Assembly: GCA_046045965.1 (NCBI GenBank)
Contig: JBJOKS010000001.1
Span: forward strand, 1 to 64,000
Direction: 5' to 3'
Length of the DNA: 64,000 nt
Source of the DNA: Cyanobacteriota bacterium
GTDB taxonomy: Bacteria > Cyanobacteriota > Cyanobacteriia > Cyanobacteriales > Nostocaceae
Under the pieces are notes generated by a model. It was not told the DNA's origin. It ran no database searches and saw nothing but the letters and a program-made list of their open reading frames with translations. Of this stretch, positions 36,218 to 45,791 are shown in pieces. Positions within the stretch are counted from its first letter, which is position 1; every line of letters starts with the position of its first letter. The translations under genes were made by a program, and so were the position numbers.

Positions 36218-36317
36218 GGAGGCAGGAGGCAGGAGGCAGGAGGCAGGAGGCAGGAGGCAGGAGGCAGTAGGCAGGAGGCAGGAGGCAGGAGGCAGGAGGC
36301 AGGAGGCAGGAGGCAGA
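36218..36317. repeat. STRR (GGAGGCA)n array
   Basis: About 14 tandem heptamers at the edge of the accessory cluster. Confidence 0.9.
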
Positions 36318-36357
36318 AGGGAAAAGATTTTTAATTTTTAATTTTTACTTTTTGATT

Positions 36358-36975
36358 ATGAACCAAAGATTAACTCAAGAACAGTTAAATCAGATTATTG
36401 CGGAAGTTCAAGGTTTACAGTTACGTCAAGAATCGGAATTTGATAAACCACAGATTCAGCAAATTTTACAAGAATTAAATTTACCAACTGAATTATTAGA
36501 TGAAGCTTTGATTCAGTTACGTCGTCGTCAAGCTTTGGAATTGCAACAACGTCGTAATAAAATGATTGCTTTTGGTGTGGTTGGAGCTATTATTATTACT
36601 GTTAGTGGAACAGTATTTTTTAATCAACAACAAAGTTCTTTATTGGCTAATGTGTCTGCTCAACAAGATAGAATTACTTTAGCTGATAAGGTTGATATAA
36701 AAACTGTTAATCGTCAATCTAATGCTGAAGTTTTCTATCGTGTAACTTTAAAAGATGCACCGATAGGTAAAAAGTTATCTCTAAGTTGTAATTGGATTGA
36801 TCCTAGTGGTCAAGTTGTGAAGCAAAATAATTATCAAACTCGTGAGGTGACAACTTCTATTTGGGATACTTTTTGTCGTTATCCTATTAATCCTACTGCA
36901 CCTGTGGGTAATTGGAAGGTGGAAATGTTGCTGGATGGGAGAAAAATTAGTGAGGAAATTTTTGTTGTGCAATAG
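36358..36975 (+). CDS. Single-TM protein with C-terminal beta-sandwich (DUF3859-like)
   Basis: Helical N-terminus, TM segment, W.DPSG and G.WKVE motifs. Confidence 0.65.
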   Translation: MNQRLTQEQLNQIIAEVQGLQLRQESEFDKPQIQQILQELNLPTELLDEALIQLRRRQALELQQRRNKMIAFGVVGAIIITVSGTVFFNQQQSSLLANVSAQQDRITLADKVDIKTVNRQSNAEVFYRVTLKDAPIGKKLSLSCNWIDPSGQVVKQNNYQTREVTTSIWDTFCRYPINPTAPVGNWKVEMLLDGRKISEEIFVVQ

Positions 36976-36977
36976 TT

Positions 36978-38687
36978 ATGTTTTCAGGTGATTTTATCGG
37001 TTATTGGGGTGAGAAGAAGGAAGATTTTTTCACGCAAAGATGCAGAGACGCAGAGAGAGGAGGAAAGGGAGAGAAGTTTGTTTTTGAGGTTGTTTATGTG
37101 GGGTGTGAGTCTGTACCGGAGATAGAAGGAAATATTATTGCTGCTGTTTCTGCGTCGGGGTTTTCTGATGCTGATGTGTGGGTGAAGGTAAAAGATGATC
37201 AGTTGATTTTGGGTAGGGAGGTTTTTGGGAGAGTTCCTTTATTTTGGAGTTGTAAAAATAATACTGTTTGGTTTGCTTCTCGGTTAGAATTACTTTTAGA
37301 AATAATGGAAAACCCGGAAGTTTGTATTTCTGGTTTATATGGTTATTCTTGTTTTTCTTATGTTCCTACTCCTTTAACTCCTGTTGATGGGGTGTTTTCT
37401 GTAAGTGCGGGAACTGAGGTTATTTTTAAGTTGGATAATCTTGGTTTTCCTGAAGTTAGAAAAATTTATCAATGGACTGAAATAAAAGAACAAATTAAAG
37501 ATGAAAATACCGCAGTTTCTCAATTACAAACTTTACTAAAGAATGCGGTAGAAAAGCAAGTTGCTGATTTAAATGATGAACCTGTGGGAGTTTTTCTTTC
37601 TGGGGGTTTAGATTCTTCTATTGTTGCTGCTTTGTTGGTACAATTGGGGTTGAAGGTTCGCGCTTATAGTTTAGATTTTGGTGATTTTGGTATTTCTGAA
37701 TATCCTTATGCGGAACAAGTAGCGCAGTTTCTCAATATTCCTTTAATTAAGGTTGATGCTAGTCCTAAGAATATTAAAAATGCTATTATTCCTACTGTTA
37801 AAGCTTTAGATTTACCTTTTGGTGATGGTGTTACTGTTCCTTTATATCTTTTAAATAAAGTTGCTTCTCAAGAAACGCGGGTAATTTTTAATGGTGAAGG
37901 TGGTGATCAATTATTTGCAGGTTGGACTAATAAACCTTTAATTGCTGCGGGTATTTATCAAAGTGAATATCCTAATAAAAGTGAAGATTTTATCTCACAA
38001 TATCTGCGAACTTTTCACCGTCTTTGGGGTTATGAAAAACAGGTTTATCAGCCGCAAATTTATGCTCAGATTCAAGGTTTAAATGCTCAGGAATGGCTTT
38101 TAGATGCTCTTGATTCGAGTTTTTGCCCTTCTTTGTTACATCGTCTGCGTCGTGCTAGTTTGATGTTGAAAGGAGCGCAAAATATTCATCCCCGTGCGAC
38201 TGCTTTAAGTTTTGTGCATGGGTTAAATGTGCGATCGCCTTTTTGTGATTTACTTTTAGCAGAATGGACTTTTCAGCTATCTGGTGAACTCTGTTTACAG
38301 GGTGCTTGTGAAAAATATATACTGAAACGTGCTGTAGAAAATTGGCTACCATCGGAAATTGTATGGAGACAAAAGCGGGGTATGGGTGTTCCCTTAACCT
38401 CTTGGTGTGTAAATAATTTTTGGCATGATATCGGTAATTGGTTAAATCCGGGTATACTAAAAGCAGAAAATATTTTTTATTCTGATATAGCATCACAAAT
38501 TGTTAGTGGAGAATTAGGAGGGAATATTCAAGGACGACGGATAGGTGAGACACTTTGGTTACTGATTATGTGGGAACTTTGGTATGCTCATGTTTTTGGT
38601 GTACAGCTAGGTCAAAAGTCTTGGAATCATCCATTTTTATTACCTAATTGGTTATGGAAACATTACAAGAAACTCCAAAATTATTAA
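36978..38687 (+). CDS. Asparagine synthetase-like ATP-dependent amide ligase 1 (no N-terminal Cys)
   Basis: LSGGLDSS PP-loop, NGEGGDQLFAG, RSPF, KYILK...RQKRGM. Confidence 0.88.
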   Translation: MFSGDFIGYWGEKKEDFFTQRCRDAERGGKGEKFVFEVVYVGCESVPEIEGNIIAAVSASGFSDADVWVKVKDDQLILGREVFGRVPLFWSCKNNTVWFASRLELLLEIMENPEVCISGLYGYSCFSYVPTPLTPVDGVFSVSAGTEVIFKLDNLGFPEVRKIYQWTEIKEQIKDENTAVSQLQTLLKNAVEKQVADLNDEPVGVFLSGGLDSSIVAALLVQLGLKVRAYSLDFGDFGISEYPYAEQVAQFLNIPLIKVDASPKNIKNAIIPTVKALDLPFGDGVTVPLYLLNKVASQETRVIFNGEGGDQLFAGWTNKPLIAAGIYQSEYPNKSEDFISQYLRTFHRLWGYEKQVYQPQIYAQIQGLNAQEWLLDALDSSFCPSLLHRLRRASLMLKGAQNIHPRATALSFVHGLNVRSPFCDLLLAEWTFQLSGELCLQGACEKYILKRAVENWLPSEIVWRQKRGMGVPLTSWCVNNFWHDIGNWLNPGILKAENIFYSDIASQIVSGELGGNIQGRRIGETLWLLIMWELWYAHVFGVQLGQKSWNHPFLLPNWLWKHYKKLQNY

Positions 38688-39874
38688 CTCCATTTTCTCT
38701 GGAACTCGCTCAAGAATTATTACAAATTTACGGTTCTCCTTTATATGTTTATGATGGTGATATTTTAAATCAAACTATTTCCCATATTACCCAATCTTTT
38801 AGTTATCCCCATACTAAGTTTCATTTCGCTAGTGTGACAAATGGTAATATTGCGTTATTGAAGATATTTAAAAATGCTGGTTGGGGACTTCATGCTAATA
38901 CTCCAGGGGATATTTATTTGGGTTTAAATGCAGATTTTGAACCTCATGATATTGTCTATAGTGGGAGTAATTTAAATCGGGAGGAAATGTCACAAGTTTT
39001 AAATTGGGGTGTGAAGACGCTGAATTTGGATAGTATTTCTCAGTTACGTTTATTGTGTGAGATGTTTTTGTTTCGCGCAAAGACGCAAAGGAGCAAAGAC
39101 GCAAACTTAAATATTGGTTTACGTTTAAATGTTTCTGAAGATAGTCGTATTGGTGTTAGTATAGCAGATTTTGATCAGGCTGTTGCTATTGCTCATGATG
39201 CAGGTTTAAAAATTTCTGGTTTGCATTTTTATCGGGGTACGGGAACTAATGCTACTTCTGCTTTTACTGATGCTATTGATTGGGTTTTTGAGACTGCCAA
39301 AAATTTACCAGATTGGCAATATTTAGATTTTGGTGGTGGTTTTGGTTATCCATATCATCATCAAGGTGTGGCTTTTGATTGGGAATTGTTTGGAGATGAA
39401 TTAAGTAAGAGAATTAGCAATTTAGGTAAAAATATTAATTTGATTATTGAACCAGGACGCTCTGCTGTAGCTGGTTGTGGAACTTTGTTAGCTAAGGTTG
39501 TCTCTGTAAAATGGCAAGGTAAAAAACAAGTTTTAGGTGTAGATTCTACAATTGCTAATATTTCTGTTCCTGCGGTACATGGAGGTTATCGAGAAATCGT
39601 AAGTTGGAAAAATCAAACTTCGGAAAAATACCTAACTGATGTTTGTGGAAATACCACTTATTCACGGGATTATTTAGGTAAAAATTGCCAACTTCCTGCT
39701 TTAGAAATTGGTGATATGATCGCTATTTTAGATGTCGGTGCTTATGGTTATGCTATGTCTTCCCATTTTTTACATCGTCCCAAACCTGCGGAGGTGTTAT
39801 TAGAAAATGGGTGTCATCGTTTAATTAGAAAACGGGAAAATTACAGTGTTTTATTGAATAATCAAATAGTTTAA
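38654..39874 (+). CDS. Diaminopimelate/ornithine decarboxylase-fold (fold III PLP) protein with atypical active site
   Basis: GSPLYVYD, DFGGGFG, EPGRS and GAYG retained; FASVTN where YAxKAN is expected. Confidence 0.85.
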   Translation: METLQETPKLLTPFSLELAQELLQIYGSPLYVYDGDILNQTISHITQSFSYPHTKFHFASVTNGNIALLKIFKNAGWGLHANTPGDIYLGLNADFEPHDIVYSGSNLNREEMSQVLNWGVKTLNLDSISQLRLLCEMFLFRAKTQRSKDANLNIGLRLNVSEDSRIGVSIADFDQAVAIAHDAGLKISGLHFYRGTGTNATSAFTDAIDWVFETAKNLPDWQYLDFGGGFGYPYHHQGVAFDWELFGDELSKRISNLGKNINLIIEPGRSAVAGCGTLLAKVVSVKWQGKKQVLGVDSTIANISVPAVHGGYREIVSWKNQTSEKYLTDVCGNTTYSRDYLGKNCQLPALEIGDMIAILDVGAYGYAMSSHFLHRPKPAEVLLENGCHRLIRKRENYSVLLNNQIV

Positions 39875-39909: not shown

Positions 39910-41208
39910 ATGAAATGTATTAACTGCGGAACTGATAATAATTTAAAAGACAGAACAGCAAACAACGGAAGATGTAAAGAATGTAATCATCCTTTTGCTT
40001 TTGAACCAACAACAATGGGGAATGTGAAAATTACTGATCCCATGTTTGCAAAAATATTAGCTGATATTTCTGCTAATGATACTTTATATTTTACACCCAA
40101 GCAGCTTTTATATTTTTTAGAAAATCGTCTCCGAAGAAAATCGTTTCAACCTTTAGGTTTTGGTTTTATATATCTCTTTTTCAATGTTTGGGTAACTGGA
40201 TTTTTGGGAGGGGTTACTTCTAGTTTTTTACCCAATTCTTTTGTCATTACTAACTTAGTTTATCAAGCAGGAGTAATTCTCTACTTATTTAAAAATACTA
40301 CTTCCAGTAAGTTAAATAGTGCACGTCGCAAAGCAAATGCGAGAACTTTACAATTGGTGGGAATAGGAATTTTGGTAGTGGGGATATTAGTCAGTTTAGG
40401 ATTAAATTCTTTCCCAATTTTTACGGTTGTGGTAATTTTAGGAATGTTGTCAATATTTTTAGGAACTAGACAGTTAGGAAAGGTAGGAAATTTACCACAG
40501 GAATTTTTAATTCCTCAATCTTATGTAGATGGTTGGTTGGAAAATTGGCAAACAATTAATGGTAGAATTGATAAGGTTTTACCTGCACCACAAGAACAAA
40601 TTGCACCTGCATCTATTAACCCTGATGTCACTGCTTACAGTTTTGATAGGTTAGTTGTTTGTGATAGTGCTAATATTGCTCAATTATTAATTGCTAATAA
40701 TTTCCACTTTGAAAATAATTGTGCAGTTCTCAGTATTAATGGTTATCCTCAAAGTATTTTTAACACGACAATAAAAATGCTCAGACGTAACCCCAATTTA
40801 CAAGTTTTTGCTCTCCATGATTGTAGTCCTAAAGGTGTTAGTTTGGTGCATCGTCTCCGCACCAGTGAGAATTGGTTTCTTAATAGTGATGTGACAATTA
40901 TTGATATCGGTTTATTACCGCGTCAAATTATTGCGAATAAGCGAGGAATGTTTATCCAAAATTCAGCTTCTTTAGCTAAAAAAGCGACAGAATTACCTTT
41001 AGAAATTCGTCAGACTTTATCTGCTGAAGAATTAGCTTGGTTAGATGCTGGTAATTTTGTGGAATTGGAATCTTTCTCTCCGCAAATGTTGATTAAAGTT
41101 CTCAGAAGTGGTATTTCTGGAAGTCTGAATTTAGCAAGTGATGATAGTAGTATGATTTTAATTGGTGATGGGGGTAATGATATTTATATGGTGGAAAGTT
41201 TTGGTTAA
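39910..41208 (+). CDS. Zn-ribbon + transmembrane + TOPRIM-like protein
   Basis: CINC...CKEC, about 4 hydrophobic helices, then LVVCD, NGYP, ALHDCSPKG, IGLLP, VELES. Confidence 0.65.
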   Translation: MKCINCGTDNNLKDRTANNGRCKECNHPFAFEPTTMGNVKITDPMFAKILADISANDTLYFTPKQLLYFLENRLRRKSFQPLGFGFIYLFFNVWVTGFLGGVTSSFLPNSFVITNLVYQAGVILYLFKNTTSSKLNSARRKANARTLQLVGIGILVVGILVSLGLNSFPIFTVVVILGMLSIFLGTRQLGKVGNLPQEFLIPQSYVDGWLENWQTINGRIDKVLPAPQEQIAPASINPDVTAYSFDRLVVCDSANIAQLLIANNFHFENNCAVLSINGYPQSIFNTTIKMLRRNPNLQVFALHDCSPKGVSLVHRLRTSENWFLNSDVTIIDIGLLPRQIIANKRGMFIQNSASLAKKATELPLEIRQTLSAEELAWLDAGNFVELESFSPQMLIKVLRSGISGSLNLASDDSSMILIGDGGNDIYMVESFG

Positions 41209-41216
41209 TAAGCTGA

Positions 41217-41678
41217 TTATAAATTATGCTCCCAATATTTGGCAGATAAAAGTAAATCTGTACCAAAATCAAATGGCCATGTATCAGGAAAATCTGTTTG
41301 TTTATACTCAACGGAAACAATATCTAAAGCATCAATATAAACTTCTGTAAATATTTGTGCTAAATAAGGTTTTAAGCTAGGAGATTCTTTCAATAAAACT
41401 TTAATTTGTTTTCGTTGTTCTACAATAGTTACTTCCCATCCATTGAAGTTTTCAGAACTGTTAACATACATCCGTTTGAGAATATGCGCTATCAAAAATA
41501 ATAATCTATTTCTTAATTCTCGTCTTTCGCTTTTTCCCAAACTTTCAATCTCCTCTATTAAATTTTCAAAATCAAGATTTTCTACATCTTTTGCTTTGAG
41601 TTGAACAACGGTTCTTTCACACCAAGCAAGAAAATCGGTTTCATATAAAATATCATGTTTGGGTATGTTTTGTATCAT
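41217..41678 (-). CDS. DUF29 family protein
   Basis: LYETDFLAW, LDFENLIEEIESLG, SPSLK. Confidence 0.92.
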   Translation of the reverse strand: MIQNIPKHDILYETDFLAWCERTVVQLKAKDVENLDFENLIEEIESLGKSERRELRNRLLFLIAHILKRMYVNSSENFNGWEVTIVEQRKQIKVLLKESPSLKPYLAQIFTEVYIDALDIVSVEYKQTDFPDTWPFDFGTDLLLSAKYWEHNL

Positions 41679-41701: not shown

Positions 41702-43432
41702 TTACTTAATTACTAATTTTTTATTTACCTGCAACCAAATTTCCAAACTAACCAATAACCATAGTTTAACACCATATCTTCCCCAAATATCACCTTTAAA
41801 ATCTAACCAATTTCGCAATATTTCCTGATTAATATAAGCTGCAATCTCACTATTTCTATTTAACAACAATTTCCGCGCTTCTTTTTGCCAATATTTCCTA
41901 AATCCTAATTGTACAGGAACCATCATCCCACTTTTAGGACGATGAATAATGCTATCTGGTAAAATATCATTCACTGCTTTTTTCAAAACTGCTTTTTCTT
42001 CCACTCCTGAAAGTTTATATTCTGGAGGAATTTGCATACTAAAATCAACTACTCGCTGATCAAATAACGGTGATAAACCCTGTAAACCTGCTGCTTGGGT
42101 TAAGTTATTGACCTTTGTTAAAATCTGATCAGCACCTTTAAATTTAATATTCAATGTCATTAATCTATTTAAATAATTAACGTCTGCATTTAAATCATCG
42201 TAAAATACAGAAGTTTCGTTTTTCAAACTTTGGTAAATCTGTGGTTTTAAAAGTTGTTCTAAATCTAAAGCACACTTTTGAAAAGAAATTAAATAAGCTT
42301 TTAAAGAATCTTGATTATTAATAGAACCATATAAACTATTAATCAACATCGGTTGATTTTTGGGACCACCAAAACAAGGATCTCCACCTTCTCCATTTAG
42401 TGTAGTCTCTACGTTTTCCCGTGCTAATTTGCCTATTAATAAATTTGGTACTGTTAAAGGATCACCTATCGGATCATCTAAATACAACATCGTTTCTGGA
42501 AGACGTTCCCACATATCCCGAAATGTGATTTCTAAAATGTGATGTTGTGTTTGACAATGTTGGGCAACCAAACTAGAAAATTCTAATTCATTTGCTGTTT
42601 CTGTACCAAAATGAATAGAATAAGTGTGAACTGGTGCATTATGCAATTGTGCTGCTAATGCTGTAATGCTGCTAGAGTCTAAACCACCAGAAAGGAATAC
42701 ACCAACGGGTTGATTTTCGGGTAAATATTCTTTGACAACTTGCTCAAGTAAAGCGCGTAATTTCTCGCTATACCATTCTAAAGGTTGATTTTTATCTATA
42801 ACTTGTTCTTGGAGTTGCCAATAATGGTAAACTTTGTTTGATGGCATTTCTAGAAATGTTCCTGGACGCATTTCTCGGATATCCTTCCAAAGTGTTCTTT
42901 CTCCTGGAACAAATGCACAACACAGATAATCCCGCAATGCAATTAAATCTAAATCATTGTTTCTATAAGGTGCAAGGGTGGTTAATTTAGGGGCAATCCA
43001 ACAAGTTGAACCATTAGCAGTATAATATAAAGTCCTACTACCAATGGCATCTCTGACTAAATATAATACTTGCTGTTCTCTATCCCAAACCACTAACCCA
43101 AAAATTCCCATCAAAAGGGTTAAAGATTCAGAGTTGTATTTTTCCCAAAGTTGTGCAATTATTTGTTGATTACTAATATTTTCATTAATATGAATTGCCA
43201 ATTTTTGCAGGAGTTCTAAACGATTACTTAACCATATATCACCAACTACTACAAATCTTTTTGTAGGACTAAAGGCAAAGTTCTCTGGTACAGAAATAAC
43301 TGCAAATTGCTCATCTTTCCAGATTACATCTTCTGTTAAATTATCTAACTTTCCATAAGCTACACACCAACTAGGAATCACTTCAATATTGGAAATGGTA
43401 GATTTAGGAGTGGGAAAAAGATTAAAAAACAT
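41702..43432 (-). CDS. Asparagine synthetase-like ATP-dependent amide ligase 2 (no N-terminal Cys)
   Basis: RDAIGSRTLYY, LSGGLDSS, NGEGGDPCFGG, KAVLK...RPKSGM. Confidence 0.88.
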   Translation of the reverse strand: MFFNLFPTPKSTISNIEVIPSWCVAYGKLDNLTEDVIWKDEQFAVISVPENFAFSPTKRFVVVGDIWLSNRLELLQKLAIHINENISNQQIIAQLWEKYNSESLTLLMGIFGLVVWDREQQVLYLVRDAIGSRTLYYTANGSTCWIAPKLTTLAPYRNNDLDLIALRDYLCCAFVPGERTLWKDIREMRPGTFLEMPSNKVYHYWQLQEQVIDKNQPLEWYSEKLRALLEQVVKEYLPENQPVGVFLSGGLDSSSITALAAQLHNAPVHTYSIHFGTETANELEFSSLVAQHCQTQHHILEITFRDMWERLPETMLYLDDPIGDPLTVPNLLIGKLARENVETTLNGEGGDPCFGGPKNQPMLINSLYGSINNQDSLKAYLISFQKCALDLEQLLKPQIYQSLKNETSVFYDDLNADVNYLNRLMTLNIKFKGADQILTKVNNLTQAAGLQGLSPLFDQRVVDFSMQIPPEYKLSGVEEKAVLKKAVNDILPDSIIHRPKSGMMVPVQLGFRKYWQKEARKLLLNRNSEIAAYINQEILRNWLDFKGDIWGRYGVKLWLLVSLEIWLQVNKKLVIK

Positions 43433-44804: not shown

Positions 44805-45791
44805 ATGAGATTAACTACATCAATTTTGCAGAAAGTAGCTAGAGAAATGGGTGCTACTGTTTTAATAGAACCTGAATATGAACTAATTGGACATATTACA
44901 TTTCCCAACGGGAAAAAAACCGTTTTTGATAATACTAGACTTAATATTAACGGGTTTGGTTCTGCAAATTTAGCTCAAGATAAAGGCTTCTCTAATTATT
45001 TTTTGCAGCAACTTGGTTACCGAGTTACAGAAGGAAAAACATTTTTCAATGAGAAAATGTGTGCAAAAATAGCCAACCCTAGAAATATCCATGATGGTTG
45101 GGATTACGCCCAGCAATTAGGATTACCTGTAATTGTTAAGCCGTTAAATCTCAGTTTAGGAATCTTAGTTACCAAGGTATATGAAAAATCCGAATATTAT
45201 GAAGTAGGAGAAAAAATTTTTCAGATTCATTCTGGCTTAATAGTAGAAAGATTTTATAGCGGTAATGACTTTAGAATCCTAGCATTAGATAATGAAATAA
45301 TTGCTGCTTATCAAAGAATCCCTTTATCTGTAACTGGTGATGGTAATTCTACTATTTTGGAATTACTGCAAAGCAAACGCGAAGAATTAATCAAAACTGG
45401 TGAAAAGATATTAATTGATTTAGAAGATTTTCGCATTATTCAAAAATTAAACAAACAAAATCTCACTTTTAATAGTGTACTTGCCAAAGATACTAGAGTT
45501 TATCTTTTAGATAATGCTAATCTATCTACTGGAGGTGATTCAGTAGATTTGACTGATAAAATTCATCCTGATTTTCAGAAATTAGCGATTAATATTACTA
45601 AAGATATGGGTTTGAGACTAGCAGGTGTAGATATCCTCACCAATGATATTACTCAACCATTGCTAGATTATACTCTGTTGGAAATTAATAGCGCCCCTGG
45701 TTTAGCTCATTATGCTTTCCTTGGTGAGATGCAAATACAGAAAGTAGAAGATTTATATCGCAAAATTTTGCAAGCATTAGAAAAAGAATAA
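44805..45791 (+). CDS. Stand-alone ATP-grasp ligase (cyanophycin synthetase N-domain / GshAB-like)
   Basis: DKG, PVIVKP, ANLSTGG, AGVD, LEINSAPG. Confidence 0.85.
   Translation: MRLTTSILQKVAREMGATVLIEPEYELIGHITFPNGKKTVFDNTRLNINGFGSANLAQDKGFSNYFLQQLGYRVTEGKTFFNEKMCAKIANPRNIHDGWDYAQQLGLPVIVKPLNLSLGILVTKVYEKSEYYEVGEKIFQIHSGLIVERFYSGNDFRILALDNEIIAAYQRIPLSVTGDGNSTILELLQSKREELIKTGEKILIDLEDFRIIQKLNKQNLTFNSVLAKDTRVYLLDNANLSTGGDSVDLTDKIHPDFQKLAINITKDMGLRLAGVDILTNDITQPLLDYTLLEINSAPGLAHYAFLGEMQIQKVEDLYRKILQALEKE

Follow-up and report, generated by a model that had tools for sequence, protein, structure and literature searches.

The gene described here lies in a 64,000 nucleotide stretch of DNA (the window) from a cyanobacterium of the Nostocaceae (Cyanobacteriota bacterium, assembly GCA_046045965.1, contig JBJOKS010000001.1, positions 1 to 64,000 of the forward strand). 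Its product resembles diaminopimelate (DAP) decarboxylase (DAPDC), a fold-type III enzyme that uses pyridoxal phosphate (PLP), and in it both the Schiff-base lysine and the catalytic cysteine are replaced. Phycocyanin genes lie upstream, and the closest named relatives are from Sphaerospermopsis and Anabaena (84–88%), which marks the host as a cyanobacterium of the heterocystous type. The gene and its features, all on the + strand, are as follows.

38654..39874 (+), lysine-less fold-type III (DAP-decarboxylase-like) protein, 406 aa, an intact open reading frame (ORF)
38834..38836 (+), Val61 (GTG codon) replacing the Schiff-base Lys, from alignments, 341/341 family sequences
38891..38911 (+), family-specific H80-A-N-T-P-G-D86 in place of DxVSxGE, from alignment
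39076..39105 (+), in-frame tandem-repeat insertion in a surface loop, 3.8 copies of a CGCAAAGA unit, from repeat analysis
39122..39148 (+), active-site loop Arg157 to Arg165, 8–11 residues versus 21–25 in canonical relatives, from alignment
39224..39241 (+), H191-F-Y193-R-G-T196, with Tyr for the ring-stacking His and Thr for the phosphate-binding Ser, from alignment
39332..39340 (+), phosphate loop Gly227–229, kept in 341/341
39449..39460 (+), E266-P-G-R269, the pyridine-N Glu and phosphate Arg, kept, from alignment
39656..39670 (+), T335-Y-S-R-D339, with Thr for the catalytic Cys, Tyr/His for the amine-binding Glu and the dimer Asp kept, from alignment
39743..39769 (+), Tyr364 to H371-F372, phosphate Tyr and CO2-pocket aromatic kept, with an SxHFL signature, from alignment

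The original prediction had rested on FASVTN (Val at 38834), HFYRGT and GNTTYSRD in place of the canonical motifs, on retained GGGFG, EPGRS and GAYG motifs and on a full-length frame, and we confirm all of these (F58-A-S-V61-T-N63, H191-F-Y-R-G-T196, G332-N-T-T335-Y-S-R-D339, GGGFG at 227–231, EPGRS at 266–270 and GAYG at 362–365). Alignments with solved DAPDCs, gapless at the motifs, pair V61 with the YAVKAN Lys, Y193 with the second HCHIGS His and T335 with the GPICETGD Cys. Further changes are Asp (D88 of ornithine decarboxylase, ODC) to His80, Glu to Asp86, Lys to Arg165 and Tyr to Phe372, and we infer that His80 serves as an acid/base next to the lost lysine. The R157–R165 loop is about 10 residues shorter in all 341 lysine-less sequences than in five canonical ones, and thus the site would be opened to a larger substrate. 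The CGCAAAGA insertion is a strain-level feature outside the family signature; its column is gapped in 95 of the 120 homologs among the matches listed, and the unit occurs 30 times across the genome.

That the protein is not LysA, as predicted, is borne out. A canonical lysA with its Lys, HxHxGS and CESGD motifs is present on another contig of the genome (where we also note a weak SpeA-like match), so the lysine-less protein need not make lysine. Its score against TIGR01048 (lysA) is 252.5, below the cut-off of 297.9, and the Arg, Tyr and Glu that bind DAP are replaced (V305, H/Y309 and Y/H336).

Both group IV (fold-type III) domains, PF02784 and PF00278, are matched above the Pfam cut-offs. 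An alignment-based AlphaFold model (pLDDT 89.4, pTM 0.90, with residues 367–371 low) was used, and a single-sequence model (pLDDT 38.6) was set aside. The structural comparison with LysA that had been proposed at the outset was run: the closest structures are DAPDCs and BtrK (TM 0.82–0.86), with a Z score of 41.9 for DAPDC 2p3e (root mean square deviation 2.4, 381 residues) and 41.6 for BtrK, the second-best match. The predicted structure thus shows a TIM barrel plus a beta-sheet domain, the fold-type III arrangement. For comparison with ODC we mapped residue equivalences by motif, some of which we take to be as generally given. Against a list of 20 critical ODC residues (PMC5518511), the phosphate ligands, pyridine Glu, Arg154, dimer residues and CO2-pocket Phe are kept or conservatively changed, and Lys69, Asp88, His197, Cys360 and Asp361 have become Val, His, Tyr, Thr and Tyr/His, respectively. 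The roles assigned here to phosphate, pyridine and dimer residues follow descriptions in PMC5518511, PMC7857480 and PMC3289617.

These changes are fixed throughout a family. We aligned 346 distinct near-full-length sequences, 341 without the Lys and 5 canonical. V61, H80, D86, D126, R157, H191, Y193, T196, G227–229, E266, K286, N302, T335, D339, Y364 and F372 are present in all 341 lysine-less sequences, and R269 and R165 in 340 each; the dimer salt-bridge pairs D126/K286 and R165/D339 are therefore kept. V61, HFYRGTG and CGNTTYSRD are likewise found in 120/120 of the closest homologs among the matches listed. A 41%-identical Sericytochromatia-type relative, when used as the query, gave at least 120 further homologs, including those of Hyalangium, Acidobacteria, Blastocatellia, Armatimonadota, Acidimicrobiales and Kofleriaceae, and a metagenome scan with the patterns HANTPGD and SSHFLNRPR, which do not include V61, Y193 or T335, gave 75 loci, a third clade among them. 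The family thus ranges over cyanobacteria, Sericytochromatia, Myxococcota and Acidobacteria. No viral relatives of the protein were found in the search, and a plasmid search found one ortholog among 427 matching records.

In a set of 46 sequences that are 37–70% identical, an invariance of at least 95% is reached by 19 of 21 active-site-equivalent positions (8 of the 9 changed ones among them) and by 84 of all 385 positions; conservation is much stronger in the active site than elsewhere in the protein. Values of dN/dS against 12 close relatives (12 pairs) are 0.18–0.30, which shows, at the level of codons, purifying selection on the lysine-less gene. Strain-specific decay, which the original prediction had named as a refuting outcome, is ruled out by these values and by the fixation of the K-to-V and C-to-T changes (V61 and T335 in 341/341).

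No substitute for either lost residue was found in the alignments. The sole lysine common to all three clades is K286; it is present in canonical enzymes too, where by motif it matches the dimer salt-bridge Lys, and we rejected it as a replacement on that ground. Position 64, three residues beyond the Schiff-base site, is Lys in 127 of 133 clade-2 sequences, Gly or Ser in 200/200 cyanobacterial sequences (Gly in the window protein) and Pro or Arg in 8/8 of clade 3. By this sequence comparison there is no replacement lysine common to the whole family, and in the cyanobacterial clade none at all that might form the aldimine, in agreement with the original prediction. Cys331 is conserved in the family, but close canonical relatives have the same Cys (VCGNICESGD), and so it does not align as a substitute for the catalytic Cys.

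The loss of the lysine extends beyond this family. A profile search was made over 1.84 billion representatives and the best 150 matches were examined; the Lys is present in 113 of these, 109 of which also keep the catalytic Cys. A tree was built from 151 full-length rows, fragments and a frameshifted-looking row (P0253) having been dropped. In it 37 rows lack the Lys, and 36 of the 37 group in a single clade that lies within the DAPDC-like proteins (FastTree support 1.0; IQ-TREE SH-aLRT 99.9 in a 67-row subset, as an unrooted bipartition). Planctomycetes and Bradyrhizobium sp. 21 are among its named members. The exception, P0336 (Ser/Ser), lies outside the clade and is an independent lysine loss. 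Within the clade the Val/Thr subclade, to which the window protein belongs, comprises 16 rows (support 99.9), and the remaining 20 are sisters of the Met or Phe type, whose Cys site is occupied by Val, Thr, Ala, Ile or Leu. R157 and E266 are present in all of 28 lysine-less representatives, F372 in 27 and Y193 in 26. From the sequences, then, a natural clade that spans several phyla has dropped both Lys and Cys and has kept the cofactor pocket.

Three Met/Phe-type sisters are fused to other enzyme domains: P0300 to an S-adenosylmethionine (SAM) N-methyltransferase, P0418 to a spermidine-synthase domain (E 2e-68) and, weakly, P0340 to an acyl-CoA-dehydrogenase-like domain (E 3e-4). The partner types of the first two act on amines. 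The glycine loop of P0418 reads GGGPG; the Asp lost in such a loop selects decarboxylated SAM, and the loop would fit an aminocarboxypropyl transfer followed by decarboxylation. P0417 is a further lysine-less sister of the Met/Phe type, and one of these sisters is from Bradyrhizobium sp. 21. Separately, the deviant relatives P0272, P0338 and P0369 keep the Lys, have Met for the catalytic Cys and carry Glu/Gln-type changes in EPGR.

The lysine-less gene is part of a conserved module, whose other members in the window are as follows.

36352..36975 (+), protein with a single transmembrane segment and a DUF3859-like beta domain (below cut-off), an optional member, 75/80 loci
36978..38687 (+), AsnB-type amide ligase A, without Cys1 and with SGGxDSS, GEGGD and RxKxGM kept, optional, 78/80 loci
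39910..41208 (+), Zn-ribbon/membrane/Topo VI-A-like Toprim protein with an acidic tail and ESFG end, a constant partner, 78/80 loci
41194..41205 (+), C-terminal E-S-F-G motif of the latter; 129/141 homologs end in FG
41702..43432 (−), AsnB-type amide ligase B, without Cys1, with a GEGGDPCFGGPKN motif, a near-constant partner, 52/54 genomes

In 80 cyanobacterial loci the kept order is transmembrane/beta-domain protein (75), ligase A (78), lysine-less gene (80) and Toprim-like gene (78), and the ligase A frame overlaps the start of the lysine-less gene. Ligase B lies inside the fetched DNA in 39 of the 80; it is on the opposite strand in the window and co-oriented with the module outside cyanobacteria. 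Of 401 genomes of the cyanobacterial phylum, 58 had matches at 1e-60, 4 of which are canonical LysA, leaving 54 carriers. The Toprim-like gene is found in every one of the 54 and ligase B in 52, the other two loci being on short contigs; 336 of the 401 genomes have none of the three genes. The carriers are related and so are not independent observations; the module recurs, reordered, in non-cyanobacterial clades, where its minimal form is ligase B, the Toprim-like gene and the lysine-less gene. The original prediction that the protein feeds the adjacent amide ligase stands as to a link with a ligase and fails as to which one: several versions of the module lack ligase A, the adjacent upstream gene (36978–38687), and the constant partners are the Toprim-like gene and the opposite-strand ligase B (41702–43432).

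Both ligases keep SGGxDSS, GEGGD and RxKxGM and have N-termini that read MSGICG or MGGVVG or are degenerate, so that Cys1 is absent; ligases that keep the adenylation motifs and lack Cys1 would need an outside amine. Their scores of 183 and 228.7 against the asparagine synthetase equivalog (cut-off 267.1), together with the missing Cys1, set them apart from glutamine-dependent asparagine synthetases; by structure they come closest to a hydroxyamidotransferase, AsnB, CarA and beta-lactam synthetase. In the Toprim-like protein a Zn ribbon and an acidic tail accompany a Topo VI-A-like Toprim domain (matched in 26 of 38 members, with the second Asp lost), and the number of hydrophobic segments varies from zero to several. 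An FG end is found in 129 of its 141 distinct homologs versus 3 of 1954 other ORFs, with ESFG, QSFG and DSFG commonest, and is reminiscent of how ATG8-type conjugated proteins end, with an aromatic residue and Gly. It points to an as yet undescribed protein modification or metabolite. In a complex prediction the lysine-less protein and the C-terminal part of the Toprim-like protein scored 0.00, which we count neither way.

Several other observations concern the locus and its relatives. Between the Toprim-like gene and ligase B the window has an inserted DUF29 gene (41217–41678, −), which is present in only 1 of 80 related loci. In L005, L007, L014, L016, L017, L022, L034 and L043 the Toprim-like gene is followed directly by a tandem second copy or remnant of itself, and the Toprim-like protein pairs with ligase B even where the decarboxylase-like gene is absent. 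Just upstream of the module are 14.7 copies of GGAGGCA (36218–36320, 96% matches), and ligase A has a smaller in-frame tandem repeat (37032–37056). In 30 of 81 loci (L053:6072–7103, −, and 29 other Nostoc-type loci) the module is preceded by a glyoxalase/VOC-fold gene and an 84-aa ORF, probably as lineage synteny. At 44805–45791 (+) is a stand-alone ATP-grasp protein like half a cyanophycin synthetase (below cut-off); neighboring phosphorylase and ATP-grasp genes are found in only 3/80 and 1/80 loci and were rejected as members. Four co-oriented module genes are broken together by stops and frameshifts in L217 (G314:C2, about 3101500–3106000). A conjugative plasmid of Gloeothece verrucosa PCC 7822 carries the complete five-gene module (L131, NC_014534.1, 319329–326147), near genes for a TIGR04222 membrane protein and a protelomerase. 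A lasso-peptide cluster was rejected, there being no conserved precursor among neighboring ORFs of at least 60 aa. A PADLOC scan of 7 proteins matched no system and gave only weak QueC PP-loop matches in 3 ligases, and a scan for promoters and terminators gave counts no higher than expected by chance (28 versus 28.2 and 4 versus 4.9).

The original prediction had offered two possibilities, a pseudoenzyme or an enzyme with Lys-independent chemistry. Between these two the evidence leans toward an enzyme. The reading that we favor, with a probability of about 0.45, is a lysine-independent PLP decarboxylase whose substrate is an amino acid already acylated or tethered by a module ligase. A homodimer would bind PLP as the free aldehyde through Gly227–229, Arg269, Thr196, Tyr364 and Glu266, with Tyr193 stacked on the ring. 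The substrate amine would condense directly with PLP, aided by His80 beside the lost Lys much as a His is used in ColD and E1; CO2 would leave from an apolar pocket of Val61, Phe372 and Leu373, Thr335 or water would protonate the intermediate, and hydrolysis would free the amine. The shortened loop could admit a bulky, acylated or protein-tethered substrate, the best candidate acceptor being the acidic -FG tail of the Toprim-like protein. Modules without the lysine-less gene would use a ready-made amine, as do rhizoferrin synthetases, which occur with or without FigC.

The order proposed, in which the ligase may act first and the decarboxylase second, is drawn by analogy from FigA/FigC, BtrJ/BtrK and MccD/MccE. 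According to PMC7857480, FigA acts before FigC, and the decarboxylase is dispensable given free putrescine; BtrK, CtaF and MccE are described in PMC11350588 as tailoring decarboxylases paired with a ligase or transferase. Like the window protein, BtrK, FigC/FslC, SbnH, MccE and CtaF derive from DAPDC and have an ATP-dependent ligase or transferase as partner (PMC7857480, PMC11350588). Unlike it, FigC keeps K63 and C354, and the Cys is stated to be conserved in all such decarboxylases (PMC7857480); moreover, their partners are NIS, ATP-grasp or carrier-protein systems, whereas here they are Cys1-less AsnB ligases and the Toprim-like protein. LysA itself (TIGR01048; PDB 2p3e, 1ko0, 1twi) shares the fold, phosphate and pyridine ligands and dimer salt bridges, and the family nests among DAPDC-like proteins, but the lysine-less family differs in lacking Lys and Cys, in the His to Tyr change, in its replaced DAP-binding residues, in the shorter loop and in gene context. 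Scores against hidden Markov models of named families are far below the cut-offs (FslC 52.8 versus 500; DokD 98.6 versus 700; TIGR03099 106.5 versus 478). TIGR03099 and TIGR03108 describe an exosortase A-associated decarboxylase and amidotransferase, which resemble our module in that a fold-III decarboxylase is inherited with an AsnB-type enzyme; the ligases score 172.5 and 238.4 versus 817 for TIGR03108, no exosortase gene is among the conserved neighbors, and we rejected an exosortase-associated system.

Catalysis without a Schiff-base Lys, by means of a His, is known from ColD, E1 and SpnQ, and the known enzymes of this kind cycle between pyridoxamine phosphate (PMP) and PLP (PMC8987622). 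These, however, are sugar dehydratases of the aspartate aminotransferase superfamily with the His at the Lys position itself, whereas the lysine-less family is of fold III, with Val at that position and His80 in place of a neighboring Asp.

A number of points weigh against the favored reading. Both catalytic residues are gone together, and in canonical fold-III enzymes single mutants of Lys or Cys are inactive or crippled (PMC7857480, PMC3289617); K57A and C334A of EhODC are each inactive (PMC3289617), and Lys69 speeds several steps of ODC according to the title of a reference cited in PMC11792860. A specific ligand-binding role would also yield an invariant pocket. In the metagenome rows H80, H371 and F372 owe part of their invariance to the motifs used in the search. 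Invariance of His80 is confined to the Val/Thr subclade (12 of the 28 wider representatives have the His), so this residue cannot be the general solution to the loss of the Lys. The three fusions are single metagenomic or metagenome-assembled genome records from sister subclades outside the family, and serve as leads only. The Toprim-like protein of clade 3 has no tail, which does not fit tail modification. Finally, in 8 genomes (73–95% complete) the Toprim-like gene and ligase B are present and the locus has no gene of the family (by tblastn in all 8, with full listings for 6), so the lysine-less gene is not essential to the module; in the 5 of these 8 that were searched again with a clade-2 query, the best matches are canonical Lys/Cys proteins and the rest are weak (E about 1e-12).

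An alternative that we think somewhat unlikely is that the protein has no catalytic activity: as a pseudoenzyme subunit it would bind PLP, a different phosphorylated ring or an amino acid, and it would serve to regulate or scaffold the ligase/Toprim module. Its occasional absence from the module and the loss of both catalytic residues and of the substrate-binding Glu, Arg and Tyr favor this. Antizyme inhibitor (AZIN) still has the Lys, and its PLP site is degraded. It and ODCrp are homologs of the same fold, without shown activity, that are retained for non-canonical roles, although both are eukaryotic ODC offshoots and ODCrp keeps all 20 critical residues (PMC5518511); Rv3778c is also presumed non-catalytic for want of its Lys (PMC12910592). 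Yet new polar residues at the reaction center (H80, N82, T83, N302, T335 and H371) have been fixed rather than left to drift, and the fusion of lysine-less sisters to other enzyme domains makes a binding role in one module less likely.

It is doubtful that the protein is an active enzyme of another kind, using decarboxylation-dependent transamination or other PMP-based chemistry that yields an aldehyde or a keto compound, in which case a keto acid would restore the cofactor. A Cys to Ser variant of a D-ornithine/D-lysine decarboxylase was solved with PMP and 4-guanidinobutanal (title of PDB 9cpz), Cys to Thr is the closest natural equivalent of that change, and a PMP/PLP cycle is what the known lysine-free B6 enzymes use (PMC8987622). 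The conserved neighbors, however, include no reductase, dehydrogenase or aminotransferase to use an aldehyde, the Cys1-less ligases need an amine, and the review PMC7497351 reports no oxygen-dependent reactions for fold-III decarboxylases. A Schiff-base lysine that is displaced, or supplied in trans by a partner protein, is very improbable: the Lys at position 64 of most clade-2 sequences follows a short helical turn in the model, but that position is not Lys in the other two clades, and K286 already has its canonical dimer role. A second or decaying lysA, which the database labels ('diaminopimelate decarboxylase' or 'decarboxylase') and the DAPDC-like closest structures might suggest, has next to no chance of being correct, given the canonical lysA elsewhere, the score below cut-off, the missing DAP-binding residues, the changes fixed in 341/341 and a dN/dS of about 0.2, which largely refute decay.

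A bolder extension of the lysine-independent decarboxylase, which we offer as speculation and think improbable, is that the "-FG" protein, membrane-anchored and Topo VI-like, is adenylated by the Cys1-less ligases at its C-terminal Gly or acidic tail and receives an amino acid from them, that the lysine-free fold-III PLP enzyme next decarboxylates this amino acid, and that the wider clade never forms an internal aldimine. If true, this would be an undescribed bacterial protein-conjugation system with the first catalytically active lysine-free fold-III PLP enzyme. In the open full-text literature (subscription journals and supplements lay outside the search) we found no paper on the lysine-less family or module, and the portions of PMC7497351 and PMC6411801 available to us describe no lysine-free fold-III enzyme.

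In fold and probable working style the family belongs with the group IV decarboxylases, and it fails the two defining residue tests, Lys and Cys; it is therefore not to be filed as LysA or under any named subfamily, and hundreds of database entries that go under the names lysA, decarboxylase or alanine racemase probably carry the wrong annotation. Bloom-forming and mat-forming cyanobacteria commonly have the module (54 of the 401 genomes sampled in the phylum). The internal-aldimine lysine is held to be near-universal in B6 enzymes, and this clade allows a test of PLP decarboxylation without Lys or Cys.

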